Source of the DNA: Candidatus Krumholzibacteriia bacterium
GTDB lineage: Bacteria > Krumholzibacteriota > Krumholzibacteriia > LZORAL124-64-63
Assembly (NCBI GenBank): GCA_024763215.1
Contig: JANTFX010000001.1
Location: forward strand, 27,816 to 91,815
Direction of reading: 5' to 3'
Length of the DNA stretch: 64,000 nt
Each line of letters begins with the position of its first letter. Position 1 is the first letter of the stretch. Below are positions 17,747-64,000 of this stretch, piece by piece. The notes under the pieces were generated by a model that worked only from the letters and a program-made list of their open reading frames with translations, had not been told where the DNA came from and ran no database searches. The position numbers and the translations under genes were made by a program.

Positions 17747-17821
17747 TGGGGCGTCGTCAAGTGGTAAGACACAAGGTTTTGGTCCTTGCATTCGCGGGTT
17801 CGAATCCTGCCGCCCCAACCA
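17747..17821 (+). tRNA. tRNA-Gln (anticodon TTG)
   Basis: Acceptor TGGGGCG/CGCCCCA with U1:A72. Anticodon stem CAAGG/CCTTG with loop TTTTGGT. T-arm GCGGGTTCGAATCCTGC. CCA encoded. Confidence 0.88.
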
Positions 17822-38010: not shown

Positions 38011-40673
38011 GGCCCATGGTGGTCAGGGAACGTTGGCGGCGGCGAGGGGCCCGGCCCGGGCTTGGCCTGCTCGTGTTGTTGTTGCTTACGGTCCCGGTGA
38101 CCGCCCTTGGCACGGGGATCTCCTGCCGGGCCGAGCTGAGCAGCGCCACGGCCAAGCAGGGGGATGTGGTCGTCCTGACGGTGACCGCCGAAGGCGATTT
38201 CGGGTGGTCGGCCGACTTCCAGCTTCCCGAGGTCGAGGGCGCCAACCTCGCCGGCGGCGGCACCAGCCAGAGCGTGTCGATGGTCAACGGCCGGACGCAG
38301 GCTTCGCTGAGCCGGACCTATTATCTGACGGTGACGGGGCAGAAGGACGTGATCATCGGCCCGGTGCGGGTCAGCGCCGGCAAGGAGCATTGCTCGACCA
38401 GGCCCTTGACCCTCAAGGTCGAACCGGGGACGGGCGGCCAGGCCGTGCCGCCGGCGATTACCGGGAACCGGTCCCTGCGGCCGGGAGCCTCCGGAGGCCA
38501 GGGGCGGCCGCAGGGGACGGGCCAGGGCGGCAAGCCGGGAGACGAGGTCTTCGTCACCCTGCAAACCGACCAGACCGAGGCCTACGTCGGGCAGCAGATC
38601 ATCCTGACCTTCAGCTACTGGCGCCGCGTCCAACCCTGGAACAACCCCACCTACACCCCTCCGCGGACCGAGGGTTTCTGGCGGGAGGATCTGGGTACCG
38701 AGCGCAACTTCCGCAGGGTCGTGCAGGGGCTCAACTACAGCGTGACCCAGGTCCGCTACGCCCTTTTCCCCACCCGCAGCGGCGACCTGGTCATCGAACC
38801 GGCGGAGCTGCGTTTTGCCGGGGATGTCTTCGACCGCTTCTTCGGCTCGCCCTCCCGGCGCCGGGGGCCCAAGGTTCTGCGCACCGATCCGGTGAAGATC
38901 ACCGTCCACGAGCCGCCCACGCCCCGACCGGAGGGTTTCAGCGGCCTGGTGGCGAGCCAGGTCGATCTGGCCTGCAGCGTGGACCGGGATTCGGTTCAGA
39001 CCGGCGAGGCGGTCAGCCTGAAGGTGACCCTCAAGTCCGACGGATTCCTCAAGGGGTTCGCGGGGCTCGTGGTCGATCCGCCGGAGGATGCCCAGCTTCA
39101 CGACGCCACCAACACCTTCGACACCAGCATCATCGGCGACCGGCTGGTCGGCAGCATCGCGTTGGAGAAGATCCTGGTTCCGCAACGGCCAGGGGTCATG
39201 CGGACGCCGCCCGTGGAACTGGTCTGGTTCGATGCCGGCAGCCGACGTTACCGCACGGCCACGGCCACGGTCCGGACCGTCATGGTGGGCGGGGAGGATC
39301 TGACCACCGGCCAGAAAGACACCTCGGGTTTCCTGCGGGCCGGGCTGACCAGGGTCGGTCGGGACCTGGCCTTCATTCACCCGGCGCCGCGCCACCTGCG
39401 CCGCGCAGGCCGGGTGTTCACAGCCGGCCCCCTGTGGTGGGTGCTGCTCGTGCTGCCGGTGATCCTGCTGGGGGTGCTGAAGGTCTACCTGGCGCGGGTT
39501 TCGGCGGCGGCCAGGGACCCCGAAGCCAGGCGGCGCAAGCAGGCCTGGGCCAGGGCCCGGACCCTGCTGGACGAGGCCCGTCGCCTGGATGACACCATGG
39601 GCATCTGCACCGCCGTGGCCCGGGCCGTGCGGGGCTATGTCGCCGACTGCACGGGGGTGCCCGAGGCCGAGGTCGAGGCCGGAACCGTACGCGCTTTCGC
39701 CGCGGATTTGATGCCTCCAGAGGATGGCGAGCGCCTGGTGGATATCCTCATGCTGTGCGATGGCATCCGTTTCGGGGGCACCGAGGCAGCCCGGCCGGCG
39801 GACCTGGTCGCCGAGACCAGGGACAAGCTGTCACAGTTGGATCGAGCTCGTACCCGCCGCCGTCCCGGCAAGTCGTCTGCGACCGCCCTCTTGCTGCTGG
39901 TCGCCCTCGGTTTGTGGGTCGCGTGGCCAGGATCAGCGGCCGCCGTGGAGGATGATCCGCAGCGTTTGCTGGCCGAGGGAAACCAGGCCTACACGGCCGG
40001 TGACCTGGACCAGGCCGTCAAGGCCTACGTGCGGGTGCTGGATCTGGGCGTGGACGATGCGGTTCCTCATTTCAACCTGGGCAACGCGTACGCCCGGCAG
40101 GGTAGGCTGGGCAAGGCGGTGGCCAGTTACCTCAGGGCGTTGCGGCTGGCCCCCCGGGACCGGGACATCCGCCGGAACCTGGCTCTGGTCAGGCGGAACC
40201 TGCGGGATATCGAACTGGCCGACCAGTCCCTGCCCCTGTTCATCGCCCAGGCTGCCCAGGCGGCGGGCTGGCTGTCCCTGACCGAATGGGGGGTGGTGGT
40301 CCTGGTCCTGGTGTGGATCCTGTGCGGCCTGGCCGCCTGGAGCATGGTGACCGGAAACCGGTCCGATGGCCTGCGCCGCGGCATGCTGGCGGCAGGGGCG
40401 GTGCTGGCGCTGTCAGCGTTCGTGGCCGGATGGCGTTACTACCAGGAGGAGATCATTCACCAGGGGGTCGTGGTCGGCGGCACCGTCGAGGTGCGGTCAG
40501 GGCCCGCCGAGAGCTTCCCGGTGCTCTTCGAGGTCCATGACGGCTTGACGGTCCACCTGAATGCCACCAGCGACCGATGGAGCCGGATCAGCCTGGGAGG
40601 CGACTGGACGGGGTGGCTGCCGGCCGACCAGGTCGAAGCGGTGGACCGGGCTCTTCCCCCTCAGGGACGGTAG
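38004..40673 (+). CDS. batD: BatD/BatE fusion: oxygen-tolerance BatD domain, TPR repeats and a C-terminal SH3-like domain
   Basis: 889 aa. The N-terminal signal/TM region and the BatD-like body overlap the batB stop. TPR block LGNAYARQGRLGKAVASYLRALRLAP. C-terminal SH3b-like block GTVEVRSGPAESFPVLFEVHDGLTVHL...WTGWLPADQV. Confidence 0.75.
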   Translation: MVRPMVVRERWRRRGARPGLGLLVLLLLTVPVTALGTGISCRAELSSATAKQGDVVVLTVTAEGDFGWSADFQLPEVEGANLAGGGTSQSVSMVNGRTQASLSRTYYLTVTGQKDVIIGPVRVSAGKEHCSTRPLTLKVEPGTGGQAVPPAITGNRSLRPGASGGQGRPQGTGQGGKPGDEVFVTLQTDQTEAYVGQQIILTFSYWRRVQPWNNPTYTPPRTEGFWREDLGTERNFRRVVQGLNYSVTQVRYALFPTRSGDLVIEPAELRFAGDVFDRFFGSPSRRRGPKVLRTDPVKITVHEPPTPRPEGFSGLVASQVDLACSVDRDSVQTGEAVSLKVTLKSDGFLKGFAGLVVDPPEDAQLHDATNTFDTSIIGDRLVGSIALEKILVPQRPGVMRTPPVELVWFDAGSRRYRTATATVRTVMVGGEDLTTGQKDTSGFLRAGLTRVGRDLAFIHPAPRHLRRAGRVFTAGPLWWVLLVLPVILLGVLKVYLARVSAAARDPEARRRKQAWARARTLLDEARRLDDTMGICTAVARAVRGYVADCTGVPEAEVEAGTVRAFAADLMPPEDGERLVDILMLCDGIRFGGTEAARPADLVAETRDKLSQLDRARTRRRPGKSSATALLLLVALGLWVAWPGSAAAVEDDPQRLLAEGNQAYTAGDLDQAVKAYVRVLDLGVDDAVPHFNLGNAYARQGRLGKAVASYLRALRLAPRDRDIRRNLALVRRNLRDIELADQSLPLFIAQAAQAAGWLSLTEWGVVVLVLVWILCGLAAWSMVTGNRSDGLRRGMLAAGAVLALSAFVAGWRYYQEEIIHQGVVVGGTVEVRSGPAESFPVLFEVHDGLTVHLNATSDRWSRISLGGDWTGWLPADQVEAVDRALPPQGR

Positions 40674-41014
40674 ACCGCGGAGGTGGAGGGCGTCTCCCTG
40701 ACCATGACGTCGGCCAGCAGGGGCAGGCCGGGCTTGAGCCGCTCGTAGACCCACACGGCCAGGTGCTCGGCGGTGGGATTCTCCAGGCCCGGGATCTCGT
40801 TCAGGCAGTGGTGATCAAGCTCCTCCAGGAGGGGCTTGCAGGCCCGGGAGATCTCCCCGTAATCGATGACCCAGCCCAGCGCGGGATCCAGATCCCCCTC
40901 CACGCCCAGGACGATGCGGTAGGTGTGGCCGTGAAGCCGCTTGCATTTGTGGCCCGGAGGGACCTCGGGCAGCCAGTGGGCGGCGTCGAAAGTGAACTGC
41001 TTGGTGATGCGCAT
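40661..41014 (-). CDS. queD: 6-carboxy-5,6,7,8-tetrahydropterin synthase (6-pyruvoyl-tetrahydropterin synthase family)
   Basis: Begins MRITKQFTFDAAHWLP...CKRLHGHTY (zinc-binding His and Cys). About 118 aa. Start chosen at the internal ATG. Confidence 0.85.
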   Translation of the reverse strand: MRITKQFTFDAAHWLPEVPPGHKCKRLHGHTYRIVLGVEGDLDPALGWVIDYGEISRACKPLLEELDHHCLNEIPGLENPTAEHLAVWVYERLKPGLPLLADVMVRETPSTSAVYRP

Positions 41015-41046
41015 GGCCACGGCTCCCGGTTCGTCTGGTCCGACAG

Positions 41047-43179
41047 TTGCTTCCCGATGCCCAAGATAAGTCGGGGCCTGCCCGGGGCGCAATCCCGGTC
41101 CTTTTCCCGGATATTTTGTTCAAGGAACCGTGCAATTTGCCGACAGGATGGGGTAGGGGACCCGATTCCGAATCGGGGCATGGCAACAGGATCCGACCCG
41201 AAAGGGATAGCTTGGCAACGTCTACCGGCGAACTGCAGGATATTCTCGGCACCCTGGACAACCTGCGGGCGCGCGTGGAAGCGATGTCCGCGGCCAGGCC
41301 TGCACCGGAACAGCCAGTGGCTGCGACCGCGGAACCGACGGTTACCGAAAGGACCTTGGCCAGGGAACCGGGTGGGCTGGATGCCGCCCAGACGGCCATG
41401 CTGCTGGGTGGCCTCGGGCGGATGAACGGCCTGCACCAGCAGCGCGAATTCGTCGAATTCTTCTGCCGCCTCGCGCGGCAGAGCGGGCTGCGCCTGCTGT
41501 TGCTCAAGCGCTGGACCAGCGGATTGCAGGTGTACCACGAGGAAGGCGTGAAGCTGCCCGAGGAGGCCCGCAAGAAGAGGTCCGACGGCCGGGCGCCGAT
41601 CCCTTTGGCCAAGGGGGATATCTTCGTTTCCGTGGCCGAGGAGACCACCGTCTACGCGGGCCCGGTCCCCGCGCGGAATTTTCCCCTGGATCTGACCCTG
41701 ATGCTCGGCCGTGGCGCCAAGGACCGCCGCATCATCATCCTGCCCCTGCCCAGCCAGGGCCACTGGAACACCTTCCTCTACCTCGACGGGGATGATGGGG
41801 ATGGTCCCTGGCTGGTGCTGGCCGAGGTGCTGGCCCGGTACGCCTTGTCCCGGATGTACCTGCTGGAAAAAGGCGTGCACCTGCGGGAGGGCAGGGTCGA
41901 CGCCATCTTGAAATCCGAGCTGGCGCGGCGGGGGGAGGCCCGCCGTAGCAGGGTGGTCCGGGAAGAGGCCCCGGCACCCGCCCAGGCTGCCACCCGTCCG
42001 GCGGTTCCGGAGAAACTTCCCGCGCAGGAACATCAGGAGCATCCTGCACCTGCTCGACCTGAAACCGAGGCGGCGGCGGTGGATGAGGATACCTTCGCCA
42101 TGATCGAGCAGGCCCTGCGCGGCGGTAGAAAAACCTCGTCGCCCCCGCCTTCCGAGCCCCCAGCCGGCCCGGTTGCCGACCCCGTCGCCGGCCCGGTTGC
42201 CGCCCCCGGAGCCGAGGCTGCGGCCGGCCCGGTTGCCGACCCCGACGCCGAGGCTGCCGCCGGCCCGGCCGAGGCTGCGGACATGACCGCGGCTTGCCCC
42301 CTGCCCAGCGCGGGGTTCAAGCAGCTGCGGCCCGAGGACATCCTCCACCACAGCGGCGAGTTGCCGGCCCTGCCCAAGGCGGCCTGCCACATCATGGCGG
42401 TCATCGAGGATCCCAAGACCACGGCCACCCGCCTGGAACGCGCCTTGGCCATGGACCAGGCCCTGACGGCCAAGGTCCTGCGCATCGCCAACAGCCCGTT
42501 CTACGGGGCGGTCCGGGAGATCAAGACCGTCAGCGAATCAATCGTGCGCCTGGGCTTCGTGGCCATCCGCAACTGGACCCTGGTCACGGCGGCGCGTTCG
42601 GTTTTCCTGGCGCCGGGGGCGGGGATCCTTTACCGCAAGATCTGGCAGCAATCGGTGATGTCGGCCATGGCCGGCCAGCTGGTGGCCCAGGAGGCGCGGC
42701 TGCGGGATCCCGAGACGGTGTTCATCGGCGGGTTGATGCAGAATATCGGCCAGCTCGTGCTCGCGCGCAGCAATCCGGAATTCTTCCAGGAGATCCTGCT
42801 GGAAAGCACCAGCACGGGCAAGCCCTACCATGTGATCGAGCGCAATCTGCTGGGCTACGACCACGGCGAGCTGGGGGCCCTGCTGATCAGGGAATGGAAC
42901 CTGAGCCCGGACCTGGAGGAGGCCGTCCGCTGGCACCACCGCTTCGATGATCCACGGGCCAAGAACGCGCGCATCGCGGCCATGATCGCCCTGGGCGAGG
43001 AGATTGCCTGGTGCAGCGGAGCGGCCGCAGAGGGCGCGGATGCCGACGGGCAGGACCAGGAGGGCCAGGAAATTCCGGTGAGCAAAGCGGCGCGATTCCT
43101 CGGTTTTTCCGCCGAGAAGATAGCTTCGCTCACGGCCCAGGCGGCGAGCCTCAAGATCGATCCGCATTTCTTCAGCTGA
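41047..43179 (+). CDS. HDOD-domain signalling protein with an uncharacterised N-terminal region
   Basis: A C-terminal HDOD domain (LPALPKAACHIMAVIEDPKTTATRLERALAMDQALTAKVLRIANSPFYG...GYDHGELGALLIREW). The start is uncertain: 41047 is the longest frame, a TTG at 41212 has an AAGGGA RBS, and there is an ATG at 41284. The N-terminal 300 aa have no recognised motif. Confidence 0.65.
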   Translation: MLPDAQDKSGPARGAIPVLFPDILFKEPCNLPTGWGRGPDSESGHGNRIRPERDSLATSTGELQDILGTLDNLRARVEAMSAARPAPEQPVAATAEPTVTERTLAREPGGLDAAQTAMLLGGLGRMNGLHQQREFVEFFCRLARQSGLRLLLLKRWTSGLQVYHEEGVKLPEEARKKRSDGRAPIPLAKGDIFVSVAEETTVYAGPVPARNFPLDLTLMLGRGAKDRRIIILPLPSQGHWNTFLYLDGDDGDGPWLVLAEVLARYALSRMYLLEKGVHLREGRVDAILKSELARRGEARRSRVVREEAPAPAQAATRPAVPEKLPAQEHQEHPAPARPETEAAAVDEDTFAMIEQALRGGRKTSSPPPSEPPAGPVADPVAGPVAAPGAEAAAGPVADPDAEAAAGPAEAADMTAACPLPSAGFKQLRPEDILHHSGELPALPKAACHIMAVIEDPKTTATRLERALAMDQALTAKVLRIANSPFYGAVREIKTVSESIVRLGFVAIRNWTLVTAARSVFLAPGAGILYRKIWQQSVMSAMAGQLVAQEARLRDPETVFIGGLMQNIGQLVLARSNPEFFQEILLESTSTGKPYHVIERNLLGYDHGELGALLIREWNLSPDLEEAVRWHHRFDDPRAKNARIAAMIALGEEIAWCSGAAAEGADADGQDQEGQEIPVSKAARFLGFSAEKIASLTAQAASLKIDPHFFS
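42163..42285 (+). repeat. Imperfect tandem repeat (about 24-33 nt units, x3-4) encoding a Pro/Ala/Val linker
   Basis: GCCGGCCCGGTTGCCGACCCCG... repeated. Protein: AGPVADPVAGPVAAPGAEAAAGPVADPDAEAAAGPAEAAD. Confidence 0.7.
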
Positions 43180-53521: not shown

Positions 53522-54883
53522 GTGAAGAAGATCCTGGTCGTCGATGACGAAGCCGCCATCCGGGAGACCCTGGAACAGATCCTGGGCTACGAGGGCTACC
53601 ATGTGCAGAAGGCCGGATCCGGACCCGAGGCCTTGCAGCTGATGTCCTCAGGGCTGCCGGATGTGGTCCTGCTGGACGTCAAGATGCCGGGGATGGACGG
53701 CTTCGAGGTCCAGCAGCAGGTGGCGGCTCGGGGCTGGGATGTCCCGATCATCGTGATCTCCGGGCACGGCAACATCGAAACCGCCGTGGAGGCGGTGCGC
53801 AAGGGCGCCTATGATTTCCTGGAAAAACCCCTGGACCGCTCCCGGTTGCTGCTGACCATCGCCAACTGCCTGGGGCACCACAAGGTGGTCAGGGACAACC
53901 GCGTTCTCCAGCAGCAGCTGCTCGAGGGGCCTCCCCTGGTGGGCGACAGCCCGGCCATGCTGCAGGTCAAGGACTTCATCACCAAGGTCGCCGCCAGCGA
54001 CGCCACGGTCCTGATCACCGGGGAGAACGGCACGGGCAAGGAGCTGGTGGTCAAGGCGATCCACCGCGCCAGCTCCCGGGCCGACAGGCCCCTGGTGGAA
54101 GTCAATTGCGCGGCCATCCCCCGCGACCTGGTCGAGAGCGAATTGTTCGGTCACGAGAAGGGCAGTTTCACCGGGGCCGACCGCCCGCGGACCGGGAAGT
54201 TCGAGCAGGCCGACGGGGGCACCCTGTTCCTGGACGAGATCGGGGATATGAACGAGCAGGCCCAGGCCAAGGTTCTCAAGGCCGTGGAGGAGAGCCGCTT
54301 CCAGAGGGTGGGTGGGGACGAGACCAGGGAGGTGGACGTCCGGATCATCGCGGCCACCAACAGGGACCTGACGGCCCCGGATTCCGGCTTCCGGCAGGAC
54401 TTGTTTTTCCGCTTGAACGTGCTGGCGATCCACTTGCCGCCCCTGCGGGAAAGGGGGGATGATGTCGAGCTGCTGCTGAACTGGTTCATGGCCGACCTGG
54501 GACGCAGGCTCAAGCGCAAACCCCTGCGGTTCCACCCCGACGCGCTGGCGATCCTGAAGGCCTACTCCTGGCCGGGGAATGTGCGAGAATTGCGTAACCT
54601 CGTGGAAAGACTGTTGATTATGGCTGCCGGGGAGACCGTCAAGCCCGTGGATCTGCCGCCCATGAATGTGGTGGCTCAGGAGGCGGGCATGGAGGAGGGG
54701 CTGCTGGCGTGCGGCGATTTCCAGGAGTTCAAATCGCGCAGCGAGGCGATATTTCTGCAACACAAGTTGCGGGAGAACCTCTATAATGTTTCCAGAACGG
54801 CTGAGGCGCTGGGCATGCAGCGAAGCAACCTCTACAAGAAGATCGCCAAGTACGGTTTGCAGACCCAGCCCGATTTCGGGTAG
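53522..54883 (+). CDS. Sigma-54-dependent response regulator (NtrC family: REC + AAA+ + Fis-type HTH), GTG start
   Basis: The receiver domain has the phospho-acceptor context (VVLLDVKMPGMDG). The AAA+ domain has Walker A GENGTGKE and the GAFTGA variant GSFTGA. C-terminal HTH. No histidine kinase gene is adjacent. Confidence 0.88.
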   Translation: MKKILVVDDEAAIRETLEQILGYEGYHVQKAGSGPEALQLMSSGLPDVVLLDVKMPGMDGFEVQQQVAARGWDVPIIVISGHGNIETAVEAVRKGAYDFLEKPLDRSRLLLTIANCLGHHKVVRDNRVLQQQLLEGPPLVGDSPAMLQVKDFITKVAASDATVLITGENGTGKELVVKAIHRASSRADRPLVEVNCAAIPRDLVESELFGHEKGSFTGADRPRTGKFEQADGGTLFLDEIGDMNEQAQAKVLKAVEESRFQRVGGDETREVDVRIIAATNRDLTAPDSGFRQDLFFRLNVLAIHLPPLRERGDDVELLLNWFMADLGRRLKRKPLRFHPDALAILKAYSWPGNVRELRNLVERLLIMAAGETVKPVDLPPMNVVAQEAGMEEGLLACGDFQEFKSRSEAIFLQHKLRENLYNVSRTAEALGMQRSNLYKKIAKYGLQTQPDFG

Positions 54884-55002
54884 TTGACGGGAGGCTTGAA
54901 TTTCCGTACATATTCTTGAGGGAGGTACATCTTTACCCCGGTGGGGCGTTCAGTACCGGGCATGGATTGCAGCCGACGGGATGTTTTTCTGGAGGAGAGG
55001 CC

Positions 55003-55326
55003 ATGAAAAGGGTTGTTCTGATGCTGGTTTTCCTGGTCGCATGGAGCGTGGCTCTGCCCGCCGTGCACCACGGGAGCGCTCTAGCCGGTGACCAGGGAAC
55101 CGTGACTGACGGTGATGCCCATGATGGCAATGGTGGCAGGGTCTTCGATTCCTACGGGGCGGCCGATGATGGTGGCGACGGTGATCCGGGCGATGCCGGG
55201 GATGGGTACGGCTATGCCGACGATACCAGCGGCACGGGTCTGCAGGGCTACCAAGACGTCGATCCCCAGTGGTGGGATTTCCTGTTGCAATTGTTGATGG
55301 AGGTCCAGGCGGAGATCCTGCAATAG
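55003..55326 (+). CDS. Small secreted acidic Gly/Asp-rich protein
   Basis: RBS GGAGGAGAGG. Signal peptide MKRVVLMLVFLVAWSVALPAVHHGSALA. A low-complexity DG-rich core and an amphipathic C-terminus. Confidence 0.55.
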   Translation: MKRVVLMLVFLVAWSVALPAVHHGSALAGDQGTVTDGDAHDGNGGRVFDSYGAADDGGDGDPGDAGDGYGYADDTSGTGLQGYQDVDPQWWDFLLQLLMEVQAEILQ

Positions 55327-55353
55327 ATGGCAGGAGTCGTCGCTATCTGAAAG

Positions 55354-58300
55354 TTGATCCGGATCACCGATCCACTTCCTCGCCAAGGGATGCGGTTGAT
55401 GCAAGAACGGTATGATAGCCGAAAAAACCTGGATGGGGATTCCTCACGGATCCTGCCGTCCCTCAGCGCTGAGGACTGCATCCGCCTCGAGGAGATCGCC
55501 GACCTCCATTTCCACGCCTCCGCCTATTCTTCCTCCCTGGACTACTACCGCCAGCTCTGCCGGCCCGACATCCTGGCCCGCATGCCCCGCCAGCAGGCCT
55601 TCCGCCTGCTGCGCAAGTCCATCGACGCGGCCATCCTGCTGGGGGATTTCCACCATGTGGACCACCTGCTGGCCCACGCCGATGCCTTGCTGGCCGAAGC
55701 CCCGGTCGAGGATCCCGAACTCGCGGCGATCACCAGAGCCATCTTCCAGACCCGCAGGGCCACGGCCTTGCGTGAACGGGGCAGGCTCAACGATGCCCTG
55801 AACCTCGGCAAACGTGCCTTCTCCGTGCTGGCGATGACCGACCTGCATGCCGATGTCGCCATCCTTCAGGTCGGCATGGGGATCTGCTACATGCGCCTGG
55901 GCAAGCTGGAAAAGGCCGAGGAATTCTTCGGCGACGGCCTGGCCACCTTCCGCCGCATCGGCCATGACCTGGGGGTGGCCAACCTCCTGAACAACCTGGC
56001 GCTGATCCACAAGATCCGCTGCCGTTGGAGCAAGTCCCTGGACCTGATGGACCGCGCCGTGGAGCTGGCCCGGAGCATCGGCGCCAGCCATTTGCTGCCC
56101 GGTTTCTACCTCAACCAGGCCCTCGTGCTGCAGAAGACGAACAATCTCGGCGAGGCCCGCGGTTTGCTCGAGAAGGGCTTGCGGCTGGCCGTCAGCCTCG
56201 GCGACCGGTTGCGGCGCACGCGAATCCTGCTGGCGTACGGGCGCCTGGAGATTTTGGCCGGACGCCTGGCCCGGGCCGAGGAGATGATCCTCGAGGGCAA
56301 GACCCTGGCCGACGAATTCGGGCTCCTGCGTGAGTCCACCATCGCCGACGAATACCTGGGCGATGTGCTGCTGGGGAGGGGCGACCTGGAAAAGGCCCGT
56401 TTCAATTACGGGCTGGGTCTGGAAAAGGCCCGCCGCATCGCTTCGGGGAACGATCTGGAAGGTGAACTCCAGCGCCGTGTGGGGCAGGCCCTGCTTCTGG
56501 CCGGTGATCATCCCCAGGCCGTTGCGGTCAGCCAGGCCGCCATCGCGGTCTGCGAAAAGTGCGGTGAGGATTTCGAGATCGGATTCTGTCACCTTACCCT
56601 GGGGCAAGCCTACTCCGCCCTGGGGGATCGCAAGCAATCCGACCATCACTTCCGTCAGGCCATCGGCATTTTCCACGCCCAGAATCTCGGCCATCTGTGG
56701 TGCGAGGCCATCATCCGGTTCTGTGACCGGAGGCTGGAGACTGCGGGCGAAGCAGAACTGCTGCTGTTGCGGCGCTACCTCATGGACGCCCAGGAAAACG
56801 GCGCCGCCGCCGTCAGCGACCGTATGCTGTGTGAGGTGCTGGAGAGGCTGGCAGGAGTCCAGATCGGGCTGAAGCAATTCGACGATGCATTGCTGACGGT
56901 GTTCGAACTGGAACGGATCGGCTCCGGGCTCGGGGACGAAGGCCTCGCCCGCCGCGTCGCCGGGCTGCGCGGGACCATCGAAGCCGGTCTGCTGGGCGAT
57001 GTGCAGACGACCCGGCGGCACCTGAACGCCCTGTCCTCGGTGCCGGGGCTGCATGCCTCGGGCGATGCGTCGGTGCCCCGGAACCTGGGGTCGGTGCTGG
57101 CCGCGGGCATGGAAAGGGTCGAGGCCAGAGGCGGTTTCATCGCCATGACCACCCCCTCGGGCGAGGTGGAGATCACAGCCCGGAACGGCATGACGGAGAA
57201 CCTCTGCCTCCAGCTTACCAGGTGGTTCGGCGCCGCGGACGATGCCGACCAGGAAGCCAGGCCCGTCCTGTTTTCCCGCCTGGGCGCAGGCGACACCTTG
57301 CTGGACGACGTCCCGGCCGTGGCCACCGTGGCTGATTCCTGCATCTTCATGCCCATCGGGCTCTATGGCCGCAACTTCGGCTTGATGTTCCTGGCGCGCA
57401 AGGGCGCGGGGACGAGCTTCCCGCGTGCCTCCCTTGACTTCCTGGCGACCTACATGGGCTTTTTGGCCCTGTTCCTGCACGAGAAGGACAGGGGCACCGG
57501 CCATGGTCAGGAGGCCACGCCCCTGGCCGAGGTCGAGAGTTTCCAGAACATGATTACCCGCAACGCGGGGATGCTCGAGATGTTGGAGTTGGCCCGGAAG
57601 GTCGCCGCCAGCGAGCTGACCGTGCTGCTGACCGGAGAAACAGGAACGGGCAAGGGCCTGCTGGCCTACTCCATCCACGCCCTGAGCCACCGCTCGACCG
57701 GGAAATTCATGGCCATCAACTGCGCGGCCATCCCCGAAGCCCTGCTCGAGAGCGAGTTGTTCGGTCATAAGAAAGGCAGCTTCACCGGAGCTTACCAGGA
57801 CAAGCGCGGCCTGCTGGCCGAGGCCGAGGGCGGGACGGTATTCCTGGATGAAGTCGGGAAAATGCCCCTTGCCATGCAAGGCAAGCTGCTGCAGTTCCTC
57901 GATACGCGCAAGGTCAGGCGCGTGGGGGACAACCAGGAAACCCGGGTCGATGTGAGGATCATCTGCGCTTCCAAGCGTAATTTGCAGGAACTGGCCGCCG
58001 AGGGGCTTTTCCTCGAGGATCTTTATTACCGGCTGCGCGATTTTCCCCTTGCCATCCCGGCCCTGCGTGAACGTCCTGATGACATCATGCTGCTGGCCAG
58101 GCATTTCGTCCAGCGCTTCAGCCAGGAAGCTGGTCTGCCGGTGCCGGATATGGACCATTCTTTCCAGCAATGCCTGCTCGCCCACGACTGGCCAGGCAAC
58201 GTCAGGGAACTGGAGAAGACCCTCCAGCGCGCCATCGTGCTGGCCAAGGATGACCACACCTTGCGTCCCGAACATCTGCCCCGGGATATGAGGCTCCAGG

Positions 58301-58482
58301 AAGCTTCCTCGCCGGCGGCATCGACCTGCCCCTTGCGCGAAACCCTGGCAGTGGTCGAATGCCGGGAGATTGCCCGCGCCCTGGCCGTGTGCAACGGGAA
58401 CAAGGCCGCAACCGCCAGGGCGCTCAAGATCAGCTACCCGAATCTGCTGAAGAAGATCCGCCATTACGGAATCAGCACCTGA
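55354..58482 (+). CDS. Sigma-54-dependent transcriptional activator with a long N-terminal TPR array and a GAF-like domain (TPR-GAF-AAA+-HTH)
   Basis: 1042 aa. Multiple TPR-like repeats across the N-terminal 500 aa. A GAF-like block from about residue 560 to 700. AAA+ with Walker A GETGTGKG, GSFTGA and Walker B VFLDEVG. C-terminal Fis-type HTH. The start is uncertain (TTG 55354, or ATG 55390/55399). Confidence 0.85.
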   Translation: MIRITDPLPRQGMRLMQERYDSRKNLDGDSSRILPSLSAEDCIRLEEIADLHFHASAYSSSLDYYRQLCRPDILARMPRQQAFRLLRKSIDAAILLGDFHHVDHLLAHADALLAEAPVEDPELAAITRAIFQTRRATALRERGRLNDALNLGKRAFSVLAMTDLHADVAILQVGMGICYMRLGKLEKAEEFFGDGLATFRRIGHDLGVANLLNNLALIHKIRCRWSKSLDLMDRAVELARSIGASHLLPGFYLNQALVLQKTNNLGEARGLLEKGLRLAVSLGDRLRRTRILLAYGRLEILAGRLARAEEMILEGKTLADEFGLLRESTIADEYLGDVLLGRGDLEKARFNYGLGLEKARRIASGNDLEGELQRRVGQALLLAGDHPQAVAVSQAAIAVCEKCGEDFEIGFCHLTLGQAYSALGDRKQSDHHFRQAIGIFHAQNLGHLWCEAIIRFCDRRLETAGEAELLLLRRYLMDAQENGAAAVSDRMLCEVLERLAGVQIGLKQFDDALLTVFELERIGSGLGDEGLARRVAGLRGTIEAGLLGDVQTTRRHLNALSSVPGLHASGDASVPRNLGSVLAAGMERVEARGGFIAMTTPSGEVEITARNGMTENLCLQLTRWFGAADDADQEARPVLFSRLGAGDTLLDDVPAVATVADSCIFMPIGLYGRNFGLMFLARKGAGTSFPRASLDFLATYMGFLALFLHEKDRGTGHGQEATPLAEVESFQNMITRNAGMLEMLELARKVAASELTVLLTGETGTGKGLLAYSIHALSHRSTGKFMAINCAAIPEALLESELFGHKKGSFTGAYQDKRGLLAEAEGGTVFLDEVGKMPLAMQGKLLQFLDTRKVRRVGDNQETRVDVRIICASKRNLQELAAEGLFLEDLYYRLRDFPLAIPALRERPDDIMLLARHFVQRFSQEAGLPVPDMDHSFQQCLLAHDWPGNVRELEKTLQRAIVLAKDDHTLRPEHLPRDMRLQEASSPAASTCPLRETLAVVECREIARALAVCNGNKAATARALKISYPNLLKKIRHYGIST

Positions 58483-58980
58483 GCCGCAGGGTATCGGGTA
58501 TTTTTCGTATCTATTCCCGGCAGGACCATTAATTTTCTTTCCATGCCAAGTGTCATGTTTGCAACAGGTTAAAAAAACATGAAAATATATATAAACATTA
58601 TTAATAGAACGACCCTCCATTGCCGGGACGGCCTTCTTTCTGGTTCTGTAACTTGTTGCTAGAGAAGTATTTAAAAATATCGAAATTTATCCTGTTTCGG
58701 TATGATCCCTGCTGTTGTTACGGCAGAGAGGCGACATTGACAGGAAACCTCTTGTGAAGAGTTTGACGCAAATGACATTCGTGTTTTCGGGAGGAATGGT
58801 TCGTACCCTGTTGGTCCTAGGATGAGCAGGGGGCTTTCATCAAGAAGTGCCGGTCCGGTGGCTGTGAAGAGGTGGGGTCTGAGCAACCCACCGCGGCGGG
58901 CAAAGGGAAAGCCAGGATTTTTCTCCCGAAACGCGAAACCTCCCTGGATCTGATCACCGGATCCCAGGAAAAAGAGCCCT

Positions 58981-59039
58981 TCGATCTTGAAAAGGCGAGA
59001 TTCAAGATCGAGTCACCGCAAGGTGGGGCTCTTTTTTTT
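58981..59039 (+). terminator. Double hairpin plus U8 tract (candidate intrinsic terminator / sRNA 3' end) inside the long IGR
   Basis: A perfect 11-bp inverted repeat TCGATCTTGAA...TTCAAGATCGA (58981-59011). Then the hairpin GAGUCACC-GCAA-GGUGGGGCUC and TTTTTTTT (59032-59039). Confidence 0.45.
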
Positions 59040-59165
59040 GGTGTATCCTTCCCGCCTGCTCGTCCCTTTTTGGAAACATTGTCCCCATTCCTAGCCGCCG
59101 TTTCCCTCTGCTTGGCCTTTTTCCGGGCCCTCCGGGGTACCCTGTGCGGGTCGTCTGTGAGAGGC

Positions 59166-59184
59166 GGCATGACCCGCTCGTGCC
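59166..59184 (+). promoter_or_regulatory. Imperfect inverted repeat GGCATGA-N5-TCGTGCC: a candidate enhancer-binding-protein upstream activator site
   Basis: About 120-140 bp upstream of the -24/-12 element at 59306. This is the usual distance for a bEBP UAS. Confidence 0.3.
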
Positions 59185-59305
59185 GAGGCGTGACTGTTCA
59201 ACCTCTTAGATGACAATGCATTAGGATGGGGACGATTCTGGGCTACCTGCGTGCCTTCTACCTCCGGAAGAGAATTCCGCCCCCCGGATGGGTCGGGGGT
59301 CCTTG

Positions 59306-59321
59306 TGGCATGGACCGTGCG
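59306..59321 (+). promoter_or_regulatory. Candidate sigma-54 (-24/-12) promoter TGGCAT-N5-GTGC
   Basis: GG and GC separated by the canonical 10 nt. It lies 45 nt upstream of the lipoprotein ATG at 59365 and immediately downstream of two sigma-54 activator genes. Confidence 0.45.
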
Positions 59322-59364
59322 TAGGACTTGATGCGGAGAATCACAGGCTTGGCCGGAGGTGGCA

Positions 59365-60379
59365 GATGGATGCTCTGAATAACAGGAAACGGTCCCGGAA
59401 ACGCTGGAGTGCCGCCGTGGGCATGGTCTTGCTGACCCTGTGCATGCTGGGGGTGGCCGCATGCAATAACGAGGATTGCGTCAGTTGTATCAACACTCCC
59501 GAGCCGCCGGTCGTTCCCACCGGTGTCTACTCGGTCAGCGGGGACAACCAGGTGACCGTCTACTGGTATGATATCTCCTATTCCCCTTATGACGGACGCT
59601 ACAACGAGAACGTGGTTTCTTATGCGGTGTACAGCAGGTTCTTCCAGGAGGGGGACCTGAATGATCCCAACCGGGATTTCTATTACATAGGGGAAGTAGC
59701 CTGGGACGAGAATTTCGATCCGGACACGGGCCAGCATTGGTTCGTCGATACGGACGTTCAGAACGGTTTCGAATACGAATACGCCGTCACCGCGGTCAAT
59801 GCAGCGGGTATGGAAAGTGCCCTGAGTTACGAAAATGTCGTCGATGCCCCCCTGCCCATGAGCCCTCCGGGCACCTTCGTGGAGGTATTCGATTCCCTCA
59901 ACGGGAGTTCCCGTCAACTGGGCGGTTTCGATTTCAGCCTGGCCGGGGAGAACCCCACCGATCTGTATGCCGGCAGGGTGGACCCCAACCAGGCCGAGTC
60001 CACCGCGGACATCCGGGTGTATTTCGAGGGCTCGGTGCCCTATGTCGAGCGCACCTCCACCAACGTGAAGATCCAGGATTTCGGGGTCTTCCTCGACGGG
60101 CAAGATAACCTGATCTTTTCCGGGGTGTCCTGGGCGCCCGCCGACGGTTACTCCAGCACCGGCAAGCTGGAACTGGTCGATGGCCACATCTACGTGCTGG
60201 AGCTCTACGATCCGCAGACCCAGAGCCTCCACTACGCCAAGTTCGGCGTGGTGGGGATCGCGCCCACGGTCTCGGTGCGTCTGGTCTGGGCATACCAGCT
60301 TATTCCGGGACTGCCGGAACTCAAGGCCCCGGAAGCGCCGGAGCCCGCCGATGGTCAACTCCGGTTCATCCGCTTCTAG
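59365..60379 (+). CDS. Secreted lipoprotein with an FN3/Ig-like beta-sandwich region
   Basis: RBS GGAGGTGG. Signal peptide plus lipobox (LGVAAC), followed by a Cys-rich stretch (NNEDCVSCINTPEPP). Strong GC3 codon bias on this strand. Confidence 0.7.
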
Positions 60380-60406
60380 CGGGATCGGAAAAGGGAGCGT
60401 GCAGTC

Positions 60407-62149
60407 ATGAAACGGATAATCAAGGCAAGCCTGCTGGTCCTGGCCCTCGGTGCGATGATTCCCATGTCCACCCTGGCCGCTGCTGCCGATGGCAAGGACA
60501 AGGATTTCGACTACGGCCAGGTCGACCTGCGGGCGGGCGTCTGGGTGGACAAGTCCGCCGATGAGGTCTACCAGGCCGGCGAGCGCCTGGATGTCGGGTT
60601 CCAGGTCAACCGGGACGCCTACGCCGTGGTCTACCGGATCGATACCGACGGTCTGGTCACCGTCCTGTGGCCCCGCACCCGCATGGACGACGGATTCGTC
60701 TTCGCCGGTCATGAATACCAGGTGCCGCTGCCAGGGTCGGCCCCCATGCAGGTCGGCGATGACGAGGGGGAGGGCTACGTGGAAATCGTGGCTTCCCTGT
60801 ACCCCTTCGATCTGCGGGAACTGGAAATCGATTTCCACGGCGAGGACCGCCGGGACCCCTACGTCTACGAGGTAGCCGGGGACCCCTTCCTGGCCATGAA
60901 CGAGGTCAACTACGCCATCACGGGTCTGGAAGATACGGCCGACTACGTGGTGACCAACTACACCACCTACTACGTGCACCGCAAGGTGGACCATCCACGT
61001 TACCTGTGTTCCCAGTGCCATGTGGATGACGGCCAGCAGTATGATCCCTACCGGGACCACTGCACCCTGGACATCGAGTATGATTACGGCTGGAGCAACC
61101 GCTGGTACGACACCTACGGGTATTATCCCGTCTACGCCCAGCCGGTATACGTGTACGTCGATCCCTGGACCTACCGCCCCTGGGTCAACTTCTGGTACTG
61201 GCCGGATTATGTCTGCGGACCCACGCTGGGATACACCTGGTATTCCGATTGCTGGGCCTGGAGCTATTCCCCCTACTACTACGGTGATGTCTACACCTAT
61301 TACAACGGAGGCGGGCGCAGGTACCGCCCCCTGACGCCCGGTGGTGGGGACCGGGTGGCGCACAAGACCCGGGACTATCGGCGCGTGACGCCCCTGGTCG
61401 AGAACGACGGGCCCGATGCCCGCCAGCGCCAGGCCATGACGCGCCGCTCCCCCGCTGCGGGTGAGGCAACGAGAACCAGGACCCCCGCGGCAGGCGGCGG
61501 GGGAACCACCGTGGCCCGCGGGAATTTCCGCGGTGAGCCGCCCGTCATCAGCGCCGGGCCGGTGGTGGACGATCCGGGCGACAGGAACCTGAAGCCCGGC
61601 CTGCGCATCCGGGAACCGGGCCAGCCGGTGGGCCGGGAACGCTCCGGCACCGGATACCGGCACGTCGCCGGGGACCGGGCGGCGAAGCCGGCCCTCAGAC
61701 CGGTGACGCCGGCGGCGCCCGTGCGGAAGCCCGGGACGACCCGGAGAGCAGGAACCCCAGCGGGCGTTCACAGGACGCGGACTCCTTCCGGGGACCGGGA
61801 AGCCTCCGGCCGCACCATCAAGCCGGTCGAGCCCCGGCGTCGAGGAACCAGGATCTGGAATTCAGGTGCCGCCACCAACCGCGGGAGCGATCGCTCGCAG
61901 CGGGTGCAGCCGCGATCCGATTCCCGCTCCAACCGGGCGCGGCAGACACCGCGGACGGCGCCGCGGACACGGACCCGTGACAGCGGTGACCGTTCCGGCG
62001 GCAAGTCCGACACCAGGGTCCGCAGCGGCGATTCAGGGGGCAGCAGGACCCAGGGGGTCAAGGAACCGGCGCGAGGAAGTGGATCGGCGACCCGCGGCAA
62101 AGGTGGCACGAGCAGCTCCCGCAGCAGCTCCGGAAGCCGCCGAAGGTAG
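60407..62149 (+). CDS. Secreted DUF4384-like protein with a Tyr/Trp-rich segment and a 270-aa Arg/Ser/Thr/Gly-rich disordered C-terminus
   Basis: RBS AAGGGAG, 27 nt after the upstream stop, so probably an operon. Signal peptide MKRIIKASLLVLALGAMIPMSTLAAA. An N-terminal domain resembling DUF4384 (AGERLDVGFQVNRDAYAVVYRIDTDGLVTVLWP). Then a Y/W-rich block and a basic RS-rich tail. Confidence 0.7.
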   Translation: MKRIIKASLLVLALGAMIPMSTLAAAADGKDKDFDYGQVDLRAGVWVDKSADEVYQAGERLDVGFQVNRDAYAVVYRIDTDGLVTVLWPRTRMDDGFVFAGHEYQVPLPGSAPMQVGDDEGEGYVEIVASLYPFDLRELEIDFHGEDRRDPYVYEVAGDPFLAMNEVNYAITGLEDTADYVVTNYTTYYVHRKVDHPRYLCSQCHVDDGQQYDPYRDHCTLDIEYDYGWSNRWYDTYGYYPVYAQPVYVYVDPWTYRPWVNFWYWPDYVCGPTLGYTWYSDCWAWSYSPYYYGDVYTYYNGGGRRYRPLTPGGGDRVAHKTRDYRRVTPLVENDGPDARQRQAMTRRSPAAGEATRTRTPAAGGGGTTVARGNFRGEPPVISAGPVVDDPGDRNLKPGLRIREPGQPVGRERSGTGYRHVAGDRAAKPALRPVTPAAPVRKPGTTRRAGTPAGVHRTRTPSGDREASGRTIKPVEPRRRGTRIWNSGAATNRGSDRSQRVQPRSDSRSNRARQTPRTAPRTRTRDSGDRSGGKSDTRVRSGDSGGSRTQGVKEPARGSGSATRGKGGTSSSRSSSGSRRR

Positions 62150-62466
62150 GATGATTGCGCAGGCGGGGCGGCCGGCCTCGCCCGCGGGCAGGGTCGGACA
62201 GTGCAGAGTGTGTGTTGGTGGTTTCCCCCCATCACCCGTCAGCCGCGCGGTAGCGGATTCTCGGAAAGGTTGGCGCCACTGGGAATCAGTAATCCGAAGG
62301 CAAGGACGGGGACACCAGCACATGTGAGAACCCGGCGAGGGAATGTCGATCAGGGGTGACAGGTACTTCGTCGGGTTCTCCTTTTTTGCGCGGACGGAAG
62401 CTTCCTTCGGCATGATCGCCGCCTGGTCACGAGCCGCCGGGGGCTGGATCTGCGCTCGGGGAATCA

Positions 62467-62496
62467 TTGACCGTGTGGGGCTGCTTTATCTATACT
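62467..62496 (+). promoter_or_regulatory. Sigma-70-type promoter: TTGACC, 18-nt spacer, TATACT
   Basis: A near-consensus -35/-10 pair about 65 nt upstream of the metalloprotease ATG at 62563. Confidence 0.45.
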
Positions 62497-62562
62497 TCCG
62501 GGTCCGAGGTTGAAACCAACGCCTGCACCGAAGCCCGAGGACATGAGAAAGGGTATGCATTC

Positions 62563-64000
62563 ATGCGGATCCGGCCTGACCGTTTTTCCCTGCTGTTGCT
62601 GAGCCTCCTGTGTGCGGTGAGCATGACGGGTATCGGCCGTTCCCTGGCCGCGGCTCCCCTTGCCGGGCAGCGGGATCTGAACCGGCTCCTCGCGCGCACG
62701 GACGCCATGGCTCCGGGGCTGCTGAGGGCGACGGCTGCGGTGCGTGATGACGGCGACCGGGACCTTCAGCGCCGGCGCCTCGCCGGCGAAAAGGCGCCCG
62801 CGGAATTGCGGGCCGTGGTCGTGATGTGCGACTTCAGCGACAGCCTGCTGCTCGGCAGGTACGGCACCCTGCCCGGGGAATTTCCGCCGCCGACCCAGAG
62901 CGAGTTCCTTTTCGCGGCCCACGATTCGGTCTATTTCCACCATTTGTTGCAGGATGTCGCCCAGTACTACCGGGCGGTCAGCGGGGGGCGGTTCACCCTG
63001 GGGTTCACCATCGTTCCCGAGGTCGTGAACCTGCCCCGGCCCATGGCGTATTACGGCGACGATGCCGAGCGGGGCGAGCAGCCGGTGGTGCTGGCGCGGG
63101 ACGCGCTGTCGGCCCTGGATCCGGTGGTCGATTTCAGCGCCTACGATACCGTGATCCTGATCCATGCCGGAGCCGGCCAGGAGACCGATATCCTGGGCGC
63201 CCATCCCGAGCAGATCTCCAGCACCTATCTGGGCCCAAGGGATTTCGTGGCCGCGGTGCAGGACAGCATCCTGGACGACCCCTGGCTCGTCGGGGGTGAT
63301 TTCCCGGACTCCGTCGGCCTGGACCACGTCCTGGTCTTGCCGGAAACGGAATACCAGGCGCCCTTCGGGGCCATCGGCAGCCTGGGCGTCTATTGCTTCG
63401 AGGTCGGCCTGCGCCTGGGCATGCTGTCCCTCAGCGATTTCACCCCGGCGGGGAATCCCGACAGCCAGGGCATCGGCATCATGGGGCTGATGGGGTACGG
63501 CCTGTACGCCGGAGCGGGGCTGATTCCCCCTGAACCCTGCGCCTTCAACAAGCTGCTCATGGGCTGGATCGACCCGGTGGCCGTGCAGCCCGGTTCGCCG
63601 GGCCGCTACGAATTGTCGCCCGCCGAAGATCCCCAGGGGGCGGCCGCGGCCGCGCGGGTGGACATCAACGGGCAGGAGTACTGGCTGCTGGAATACCGGC
63701 TCCAGGATCCTGACGGCAACAACGTGTTCTCCTTCGGGGACGACAAGAACCACAACGGGATCCCCGATTTCTACGACATGGATTCGGCCCTGGGCAACGG
63801 GATCCCGACGGGGTTCTTCGACCCGGCCGTCGATTCCCTCGAGACGCTGGTCGGGGCCGAATGGGACTTTGCCATGACGGCCAATTCCGCCCGGCCCCGC
63901 GGGGTCAACGCGGCAGGCAGCGGAATCTTCATCTGGCACGTGGACGAGGGCGTCATCCGCGACGCGTTCGGCGCCGAAGGCAACCTGTTCAACGCCGACC
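62563..64000 (+). CDS. Secreted M6-family (immune inhibitor A-like) metalloprotease domain protein, 3'-partial
   Basis: The frame is open to the window end, so it is absent from the ORF track (which needs a stop). Signal peptide MRIRPDRFSLLLLSLLCAVSM. The N-terminal M6-type block LRAVVVMCDFSDSLL. No HEXXH lies within the window; it is expected downstream. Confidence 0.6.
   Translation, partial: MRIRPDRFSLLLLSLLCAVSMTGIGRSLAAAPLAGQRDLNRLLARTDAMAPGLLRATAAVRDDGDRDLQRRRLAGEKAPAELRAVVVMCDFSDSLLLGRYGTLPGEFPPPTQSEFLFAAHDSVYFHHLLQDVAQYYRAVSGGRFTLGFTIVPEVVNLPRPMAYYGDDAERGEQPVVLARDALSALDPVVDFSAYDTVILIHAGAGQETDILGAHPEQISSTYLGPRDFVAAVQDSILDDPWLVGGDFPDSVGLDHVLVLPETEYQAPFGAIGSLGVYCFEVGLRLGMLSLSDFTPAGNPDSQGIGIMGLMGYGLYAGAGLIPPEPCAFNKLLMGWIDPVAVQPGSPGRYELSPAEDPQGAAAAARVDINGQEYWLLEYRLQDPDGNNVFSFGDDKNHNGIPDFYDMDSALGNGIPTGFFDPAVDSLETLVGAEWDFAMTANSARPRGVNAAGSGIFIWHVDEGVIRDAFGAEGNLFNAD

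Follow-up and report, generated by a model that had tools for sequence, protein, structure and literature searches.

Which promoters, and which genes, are served by two sigma-54 activators that are encoded side by side without a partner kinase? This question is raised by a stretch of 64,000 nucleotides from Candidatus Krumholzibacteriia bacterium (contig JANTFX010000001.1 of assembly GCA_024763215.1, positions 27,816 to 91,815 of the forward strand; hereafter the window), which belongs to the phylum Krumholzibacteriota of the FCB superphylum (PMC10936416). Near its end, genes for a response-regulator activator and for a second activator with a long TPR array (the TPR activator) are followed by a long intergenic region (IGR) and by genes for a lipoprotein, a DUF4384 protein and an M6-like protein. 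A first-pass annotation, made from the sequence alone, read these genes as a dedicated sigma-54-controlled module with secreted or surface outputs. That reading is supported by the co-localization of the genes in relatives, by intact sigma-54 contact loops in both activators and by conserved -24/-12 elements. We consider it probable that the cluster is a dedicated sigma-54 node, present throughout the phylum, with two outputs: a structured noncoding RNA encoded in the IGR, and a surface operon linked to the type IX secretion system (T9SS).

Two sigma-54 activators and two conserved promoters

The neighborhood was compared in one relative (P0118) and in the 79 loci returned by a scan of GTDB, one genome per species, with the TPR-activator region; gene order across these loci was assessed by tblastn with the proteins of the window. 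The order of response-regulator activator, TPR activator, long spacer, lipoprotein, DUF4384 protein and M6-like protein is kept in every locus on a long enough contig, in about 60 Krumholzibacteriota genomes, so that co-localization holds throughout the phylum. The open reading frames (ORFs) of the first-pass annotation, including that of a 108-aa protein between the activators, all lie where it had placed them, and the domains that it assigned were confirmed by Pfam and NCBIfam. In the most divergent locus (L080), whose TPR region has just 32% identity, the core cluster is intact and the upstream housekeeping synteny is gone. When the TPR sensor region is used as a query, 187 proteins of about 1030 aa are found, and nearly all of those that are named come from Krumholzibacteria. 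Many metagenome-assembled genomes that carry the cluster (L004, L018, L021, L030, L063, L069 and others) are labelled 'uncultured Fibrobacteraceae', 'Gemmatimonadales', 'Gemmatimonas sp.', 'Latescibacterota' or 'Fibrobacter sp.'; these labels are probably outdated or wrong.

The first activator is indeed the classical REC-AAA-HTH regulator that had been described, since Pfam finds a receiver (PF00072, 108.7 bits), Sigma54_activat, an AAA lid and HTH_8. The phospho-acceptor aspartate is conserved in its orthologs, within (L/I/V)LLD(I/V)KMP, as is the DD pocket. The protein reaches no NCBIfam equivalog cut-off and is thus best described as a generic NtrC-family regulator. It had also been called an orphan, and no histidine kinase was found among the genes from 36 kb to the end of the window, nor within 10 kb on either side in the syntenic locus L001.

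In the second activator, about six TPR_12 stretches and a MalT-like TPR are followed by a GAF-like stretch, Sigma54_activat and HTH_8. The TPR, AAA+ and HTH_8 parts of the architecture first proposed are borne out by Pfam, and the GAF part is less secure: the GAF_2 match (E 6.6e-4, 20.3 bits) covers profile positions 11-135 of 136 but falls under the cut-off of 28.6 bits. PF13185 is precomputed for several orthologs. A database protein that is 100% identical to the TPR activator has 1027 aa, and translation therefore probably starts at ATG 55399. Within the searches made, this putative sensor architecture of TPR repeats plus GAF-like fold is restricted to Krumholzibacteriota. Three database entries (P0103, P0111 and P0115) consist of the TPR part only, with 636-818 aa and no AAA+ part; these and the activator gene of locus L034 may reflect frameshifts or split genes.

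Both activators appear equipped to contact sigma-54. Pfam scores PF00158 at 222.8 and 218.5 bits in the two proteins, the C-terminal Fis-type HTH (PF02954) is found in both, and both have Walker A and B motifs, with GETGTGK and FLDE(I/V) conserved among TPR-activator orthologs. The sigma-54 contact loop reads GSFTGA in both window proteins and GSFTGA or GAFTGA in 116/117 and 69/69 orthologs; it is intact in both.

The GC content drops to 46% in the IGR between the TPR-activator and lipoprotein genes, and the length of this region is 750-1260 nt in all loci but two. One exception (L068, 10726-12733) has an IGR of 2006 nt, in which about 1 kb is inserted between the RNA and the second promoter; in the other (L034, ~13489-14066) the activator gene appears to be disrupted or extended, the IGR measures 576 nt and the match to the RNA is truncated. 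DNA-level conservation in the window IGR is confined to its central part, about 58700-59050, and an iterated nhmmer profile finds one conserved block of about 360 nt in each locus, always on the + strand.

The first-pass annotation had described an AT-rich structured IGR with one -24/-12 match. Conserved -24/-12 elements are present, but there are two such promoters, P1 and P2, and the RNA gene between them had been taken simply for structure in the IGR. P1, with the consensus TGGYAYG-N4-STGCW, lies at the 5' edge of the conserved block in 60/62 loci, and conservation of its GG, A, G and TGC is 90% or more. P2, with the consensus TGGCACG-N4-STGCG, is found in 58/62 loci, mostly 50-100 nt before the lipoprotein gene and at most about 350 nt from where the tblastn match begins; in the window the Shine-Dalgarno (SD) sequence of that gene, GGAGGTG, follows at about 59353. 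Both promoters are present in 57/62 loci. When the same rule is applied to two control regions, the one ahead of the activator genes and the one separating them, only 6/66 and 10/66 loci match (9-15%). The two elements are recognizable only by comparing relatives: the pattern TGGCAC-N5-TTGCW, allowing up to 2 mismatches, is nowhere matched in the window IGR and shows no enrichment across the window. No sigma-70-type promoter was found in the IGR. P1 and P2 are described here as putative sigma-54-dependent promoters. Autoregulation of the activators through sigma-54 promoters of their own was considered and rejected, because the scan of the control regions found no conserved sigma-54 promoter upstream of either activator gene or of the small ORF between them.

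Candidate activator sites (upstream activating sequences, UAS) accompany both promoters. The UAS1 pattern is unique in the window, where 0.03 matches are expected. Its family form, CTATAAA-N4-6-TTTATAG with up to 3 mismatches, is found in 43/60 loci; its median distance from P1 is 102 nt, and the background rate is 0.054 per kb. Upstream regions aligned on P1 contain, in order, the terminator of the activator gene, the UAS1 palindrome and, at about -50, a GTAAC...GTTAA zone that is possibly a bending site or a second binding site. The UAS2 motif, GTCCCC-N4-GGGGAC..TGTCC, is well formed (up to 2 mismatches) in 28/55 loci, with about 0.08 matches expected per region. It is placed about 60 nt past the end of the RNA and about 190 nt upstream of P2, and some 100 nt ahead of P2 there is an AT-rich patch. 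UAS2 may be an activator site for P2, for which the evidence is weak. The occurrence of two different dyads at the two promoters, together with two activators that have different HTH domains, suggests that each promoter has its own activator.

A structured RNA between the promoters

The conserved block appears to encode an RNA of about 315 nt, which nhmmer detects in 66 loci, always as a single copy on the + strand. In the window, the segment from about 58724 to the end of a U-run at 59039 folds with a minimum free energy (MFE) of -140 kcal/mol, a z-score of -6.0 relative to shuffles. RNAalifold gives 35 pairs, 30 of them compensatory, for 47 diverse copies, and 72 pairs in 11 helices, 34 of them compensatory, for 14 closer copies. 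In the 72-pair structure 93% of the cells are paired, against 40-57% when the partners are slid by 1-3 columns, and 0/500 shuffles attain such values. Distant copies, when their MFE folds are computed independently, converge on one plan.

This plan has four parts. The first is a 5' hairpin with the loop GUUACAGGGAU, in the family ACAGG(G)A. In the second, a long-range helix of UUCGUGUUUUCGGGAG with CUCCCGAAACACGAA encloses a three-branch core, which contains a hairpin carrying GCUUACCGGC and a helix closed at its tip by the invariant loop GAGGUGGGGUC (58869-58879). The third part is a variable hairpin, and the fourth is a 3' domain formed by pairing of AAAGAGCCC with GGGCUCUUU, with two hairpins inside. 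The first hairpin of this domain (58981-59011) displays the invariant loop GGCGAG at 58994-58999, one of four invariant loops in the RNA. A terminator scan finds an intrinsic terminator with its stem at 59013-59026, followed by U8 at 59032-59039.

No family in Rfam 15 reaches its gathering score in the window IGR, and when the filters are relaxed (E up to 1 or 5) the element is still unmatched in the window and in loci L001 and L043. Chance-level matches only flank the RNA, with STnc420 and radC hit beyond it in L043 and SNORD50 where the activator gene ends. The RNA is thus a candidate for a new family absent from Rfam 15. A sponge of the CsrB/RsmZ type was considered and rejected, as the median of 9 GGA per RNA is not an enrichment (z -1.2 relative to dinucleotide shuffles); presumably only the loop of the 5' hairpin resembles a CsrA site.

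Metagenomes were scanned with a pattern built from two of the invariant loops, and 65 stretches were retrieved and vetted by nhmmer. True copies of the RNA make up 37 of these, and they nearly always have the same setting, with the TPR activator upstream in 27/28 testable cases and the lipoprotein gene downstream in 33/33; the RNA is therefore known only in this context. The remaining 28 are chance matches, 26 inside ORFs and two (L094 and L121) that are one identical sequence spanning a gene end. In a low-GC lineage (L065, L076 and L078, with an IGR of about 35% GC) nhmmer nearly or wholly missed the RNA, while inspection finds all hallmark loops and both promoters there. The family must accordingly be broader than the profile counts suggest.

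These features can be assembled into a working model. One input would be an NtrC-type response regulator that can be phosphorylated and whose kinase gene lies elsewhere, and the other an activator that senses through its long TPR array and GAF-like fold. Each activator, on its own signal, would bind an upstream site and use ATP to open the sigma-54 closed complex, with the AT-rich palindrome serving P1 and the GC-rich dyad serving P2. Transcription from P1 would produce the multi-helix RNA, halted at its own intrinsic terminator, and transcription from P2 would yield a four-gene envelope operon for an FN3-like lipoprotein, the DUF4384 protein with its CXXCH motif and aromatic-rich block, a dead M6-like beta-propeller protein with a possible T9SS sorting domain and a PorV/PorQ-family outer-membrane barrel. 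By analogy with cbrB-crcZ and luxO-qrr (see below), the RNA may be a regulator acting in trans, and it could possibly feed back on translation of the TPR activator.

This feedback is the part of the model for which a specific pairing can be proposed. A target search looked for complements of the four invariant loops near the start codons of the cluster genes, over 20 motif-by-gene combinations. CTCGCC, the exact complement of the loop GGCGAG, occurs between -60 and +40 of the TPR-activator start in 76/79 loci and is essentially absent near the other cluster genes; no other invariant loop stood out. In the window, CUCGCC ends 15 nt ahead of the ATG and forms the loop of a hairpin in the leader of the TPR-activator mRNA. 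The lower stem of this hairpin varies between clades with complementarity retained. RNAalifold missed the hairpin because its register differs between two clades, and each sequence was folded separately instead; in these MFE folds the loop is exposed in 67/77 cases and the SD is paired in 76/77. A conserved hairpin that sequesters the SD points to translational control of the TPR activator, whatever its partner may be.

The partner could be the RNA itself, if GGCGAG and CUCGCC form a kissing complex that alters translation of the activator. Both hexamers lie in apical loops of hairpins with covarying stems, and the feedback of Qrr RNAs on luxO provides a precedent (PMC3262071). On the other side, the proposed complex comprises only 6 invariant base pairs, and the match was picked out of the 20 combinations tried. 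The flanks pair equally well in cognate and permuted pairs (6.83 vs 6.83 bp, with 1117/2000 permutations at or above the observed value), and the clade of L065 has a GUCGCC leader loop while its RNA loop is unchanged. The kissing interaction is therefore offered as a tentative and rather unlikely refinement of the model.

The RNA might instead act in cis, as a leader of the lipoprotein operon resembling a riboswitch or attenuator, with a ligand or protein setting the level of read-through from P1. It has the orientation of the operon and lies directly upstream of it, the two always co-occur, and the large conserved fold closes with a terminator, all as expected of such a 5' UTR. However, the better-conserved promoter P2 lies about 270 nt beyond that terminator and close to the lipoprotein start codon, and the sequence from terminator to P2 is not conserved and tolerates the 1-kb insertion of L068. 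The terminator helix belongs to the conserved three-way 3' domain, and no alternative antiterminator pairing was seen, though no systematic search for one was made. A leader of this kind seems to us quite doubtful.

Several observations weigh against a dedicated sigma-54 node as such. In most loci the synteny extends to the flanking housekeeping genes, Rrf2, RlmN and a convergent metallophosphoesterase, so that gene order alone is weak evidence for functional linkage. P1 of the window matches 8/12 specified positions and is thus poorer than the family consensus, and the window copy of UAS2 is degenerate, failing the pattern at up to 2 mismatches; the pattern is also not enriched in the window. 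No RpoN box was found in the 1.85 Mb of sequence examined, which takes in only the window from this genome. One could argue from the synteny of the neighbors, which extends across most of the phylum, that the cluster was simply inherited together without shared regulation, the activators serving promoters elsewhere and the IGR motifs being unrelated to them. This would leave to coincidence the two sigma-54 promoters that directly follow the two sigma-54 activators in nearly all loci and the palindromes at fixed positions upstream of P1 and P2, and L080 keeps the core cluster even though the upstream synteny is lost. We judge this explanation to be highly improbable. That the conserved block is a gene for a small protein can be dismissed almost entirely: stop-free stretches of 60-115 codons do occur in many copies, but they change strand and frame from copy to copy, indels are frequent, there is no third-position conservation pattern, and 34 base pairs show compensatory changes.

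The surface operon and other features of the window

The second output of the proposed node is the operon behind P2 (see Table 1 for coordinates of all features). The Cys-rich lipoprotein of the first-pass annotation is present, and the cysteines of its C-x4-C-x2-C motif are invariant among orthologs. It has no Pfam match, and every named homolog is 'hypothetical'. Its AlphaFold model (pLDDT 84.6) is matched by Foldseek to tandem FN3 domains, the first sandwich being FN3-like. The next protein was correctly recognized as a DUF4384 protein with a Y/W-rich block (PF14326, 47.6 bits against a cut-off of 27); Y and W make up 25% of the block, and R and K make up 21% of the tail, which is basic and disordered. 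A CXXCH motif, the c-type haem-binding signature, occurs as the invariant RYLCxQCH at 61001-61024 (residues ~199-206), and CxQCH is found in 60/60 orthologs. On this basis the protein may be a monohaem or redox-active surface protein.

The third gene had been assigned to an M6-like protease. It has FEVGL in place of HEXXH, which is absent from all orthologs examined (more than 50), and the conserved block reads GVYCFEVGLRLGM in nearly all of them; judged by its sequence, the protein is catalytically dead. NF052323 matches the window fragment at 128.6 bits and the full-length ortholog of L001 at 162 bits (equivalog cut-off 600), TIGR03296 scores 58-78 bits (cut-off 110.8), and PF05547 reaches 24.1 bits against a cut-off of 22 without any single stretch passing. 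Single-sequence and profile searches against PDB sequences gave no match. A model of the full-length protein has a BamB-like beta-propeller, which dominates the fold search, and a confident C-terminal beta-sandwich. Por_Secre_tail matches residues 1048-1124 of the L001 ortholog, a region outside the window, with E 0.036-0.052, which is weak and under the cut-off. PF18962 is precomputed for two orthologs, one of which NCBI calls a 'T9SS type A sorting domain-containing protein'.

The M6-like gene is followed, beyond the end of the window, by a PorV/PorQ-family gene in 29/29 loci; in L001 this gene scores 152.6 bits with NF033709 (cut-off 90). A dead M6-like protein next to a PorV/PorQ gene argues that the output is a surface-exposed complex delivered by type IX secretion rather than a protease system, and the complex is probably non-catalytic. 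The first-pass annotation could not match the module to any described system and suggested a role in matrix remodelling. The operon is linked to type IX secretion by the PorV/PorQ gene and by the best NCBIfam match of its third protein, a T9SS-dependent M6-like inactivated metalloprotease, and so the module is not wholly unmatched; no specific support was found for matrix remodelling.

The small protein between the activators escaped tblastn and was recovered through the ORFs of the spacer. This spacer is 500-700 nt and contains, in all loci examined, an ORF of about 100 aa with the same features, so that the acidic secreted protein first noted in the window, with its signal peptide and acidic stretch, is found phylum-wide. 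It has no Pfam or NCBIfam match. A secreted small protein adjoining a TPR sensor recalls peptide-signalling pairs, for which there is no specific support. The TPR profile gives only generic TPR matches in PDB, and an RRNPP-like peptide receptor is accordingly not specifically supported. The most elaborate version of the model joins a new, sigma-54-fired RNA class, kissing-loop feedback on the TPR-activator leader and the secreted GDP-motif protein as an outside cue for the TPR sensor into a self-contained circuit that times a T9SS-anchored complex; this is speculative and unlikely.

Elsewhere in the window, Bat-type genes (for a VWA+TPR protein and a BatD+TPR protein) and a gene for a 710-aa HDOD-domain signalling protein lie within 36097-43179. 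Three tRNA genes (2432-2516, 2555-2641 and 2724-2796) are directly upstream of the gene for signal recognition particle RNA (2837-2934), and a further tRNA gene is at 17747-17818.

Table 1. Features of the sigma-54 cluster, in window coordinates
Feature	Position	Strand	Basis or remark
Orphan NtrC-family response-regulator activator (REC, sigma-54 AAA+, HTH_8)	53522..54883	+	Pfam; in all loci
Small conserved protein	55000..55326	+	Signal peptide, acidic low-complexity stretch, GDP(D/G)-x-x-G, C-terminal hydrophobic helix
Leader hairpin of TPR-activator mRNA	55365..55398	+	SD-like GGGA in 3' strand; invariant CUCGCC loop 55379-55384
TPR, GAF-like, sigma-54 AAA+, HTH_8 activator	55399..58482 (alternative start TTG 55354)	+	Pfam; ~1030-aa ortholog family
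Candidate UAS1, palindrome ATATAAA-N5-TTAATAG	58589..58607	.	100 nt upstream of P1
AT-rich GTAAC...GTTAA inverted-repeat zone	58647..58678	.	Fixed distance in P1-aligned upstream sequences
Putative sigma-54 promoter P1, CGGTATGATCCCTGCT	58698..58713; GG 58699-58700, GC 58711-58712	+	Comparative consensus
Structured noncoding RNA, ~315 nt	~58724..59039	+	nhmmer, covariation, terminator
Candidate UAS2, degenerate copy of GTCCCC-N4-GGGGAC..TGTCC	59062..59086	.	Just past RNA terminator
Putative sigma-54 promoter P2, TGGCATGGACCGTGCG	59306..59321	+	~45 nt upstream of lipoprotein ATG
Lipoprotein, lipobox Cys then C-x4-C-x2-C, two beta-sandwich domains	59366..60379	+	AlphaFold, Foldseek
Secreted DUF4384 protein: RYLCxQCH, Y/W-rich block, basic disordered tail	60407..62149	+	Pfam
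5' part of ~1150-aa inactivated M6-like protein	62536..64000, continues past window	+	NF052323, TIGR03296

Relationship to known systems

A literature search found no paper on DUF4384, PorV2 or M6i modules, nor on regulation in Krumholzibacteriota, and the parts of the cluster are best compared one at a time. The response-regulator activator resembles regulators of the NtrC, AtoC and NtrX type in having REC, AAA+ and HTH_8 domains with all key motifs, but it is under every equivalog cut-off and has no adjacent kinase. The neighboring TPR activator recalls the peptide-sensing RRNPP family (NprR, Rap, PlcR), whose members have a gene for a secreted pro-peptide beside them; here too a cytoplasmic TPR sensor adjoins the gene for a small secreted protein. 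The TPR profile does weakly match NprR, Rap and PlcR, but no better than it matches kinesin light chain or LGN. The output of the TPR activator is a sigma-54 AAA+ module and not an HTH alone, and the small protein, of about 100 aa, carries a hydrophobic helix at its C-terminus. This is a resemblance only.

The surface operon is most similar to a T9SS cargo with its PorV/PorQ shuttle, in view of the inactivated M6-like domain, the C-terminal beta-sandwich like a sorting domain and the adjacent PorV/PorQ-family barrel. The scores are far under the equivalog cut-offs, at 128-162 vs 600 bits for NF052323 and 40 vs 325 for NF052325 ('PorV2'), and the operon is therefore a relative of these families rather than a member. 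The T9SS descriptions that were found include neither the lipoprotein and DUF4384 partners nor sigma-54 control. It has been proposed that sigma-54 governs the bacterial exterior (PMC3162934), and the surface complex proposed as an output here fits that view.

For the RNA, the closest parallel in genetic layout is cbrB-crcZ. There the NtrC-family activator gene cbrB is followed by the gene for CrcZ, a sigma-54-dependent noncoding RNA of roughly 400 nt. In all Pseudomonas genomes crcZ is located downstream of cbrB (PMC5113210). The two systems share an activator gene followed by a -24/-12 promoter, a long noncoding RNA and a terminator, and in both the linkage is clade-wide. There is no match in sequence or structure, however; Rfam, which includes CrcZ, gave nothing for the RNA described here. 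CrcZ is an A-rich sponge for Hfq/Crc, whereas the present RNA has a GC-rich multi-helix fold, and the Krumholzibacteriota cluster has two activators and a second promoter and belongs to a different phylum.

A second parallel is luxO-qrr of Vibrio quorum sensing, where qrr1 adjoins luxO and the Qrr RNAs are about 100 nt, Hfq-dependent and act by linear seed pairing. An NtrC-type activator and sigma-54 drive these small RNAs (bioRxiv 10.1101/2021.07.01.450815; PMC4878744), much as is proposed for the longer RNA here, which has nothing detectable in common with them. The Qrr RNAs feed back on luxO mRNA (PMC3262071); the feedback proposed here differs in that it would depend solely on a 6-nt loop-loop complement.

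Krumholzibacteriota have no cultured and genetically studied member, and a conserved circuit that can be read from sequence is therefore a rare entry point to their biology. At its center is a phylum-wide RNA, about 315 nt long and supported in roughly 72 base pairs, whose promoter type and neighbors provide a testable hypothesis about when it is made. The proposed circuit would tie sigma-54 control to a surface complex that is associated with type IX secretion and built around a dead protease. It would also extend to the FCB superphylum a design represented by CbrB-CrcZ and LuxO-Qrr, in which the gene for a sigma-54 activator lies beside that of its own noncoding RNA.

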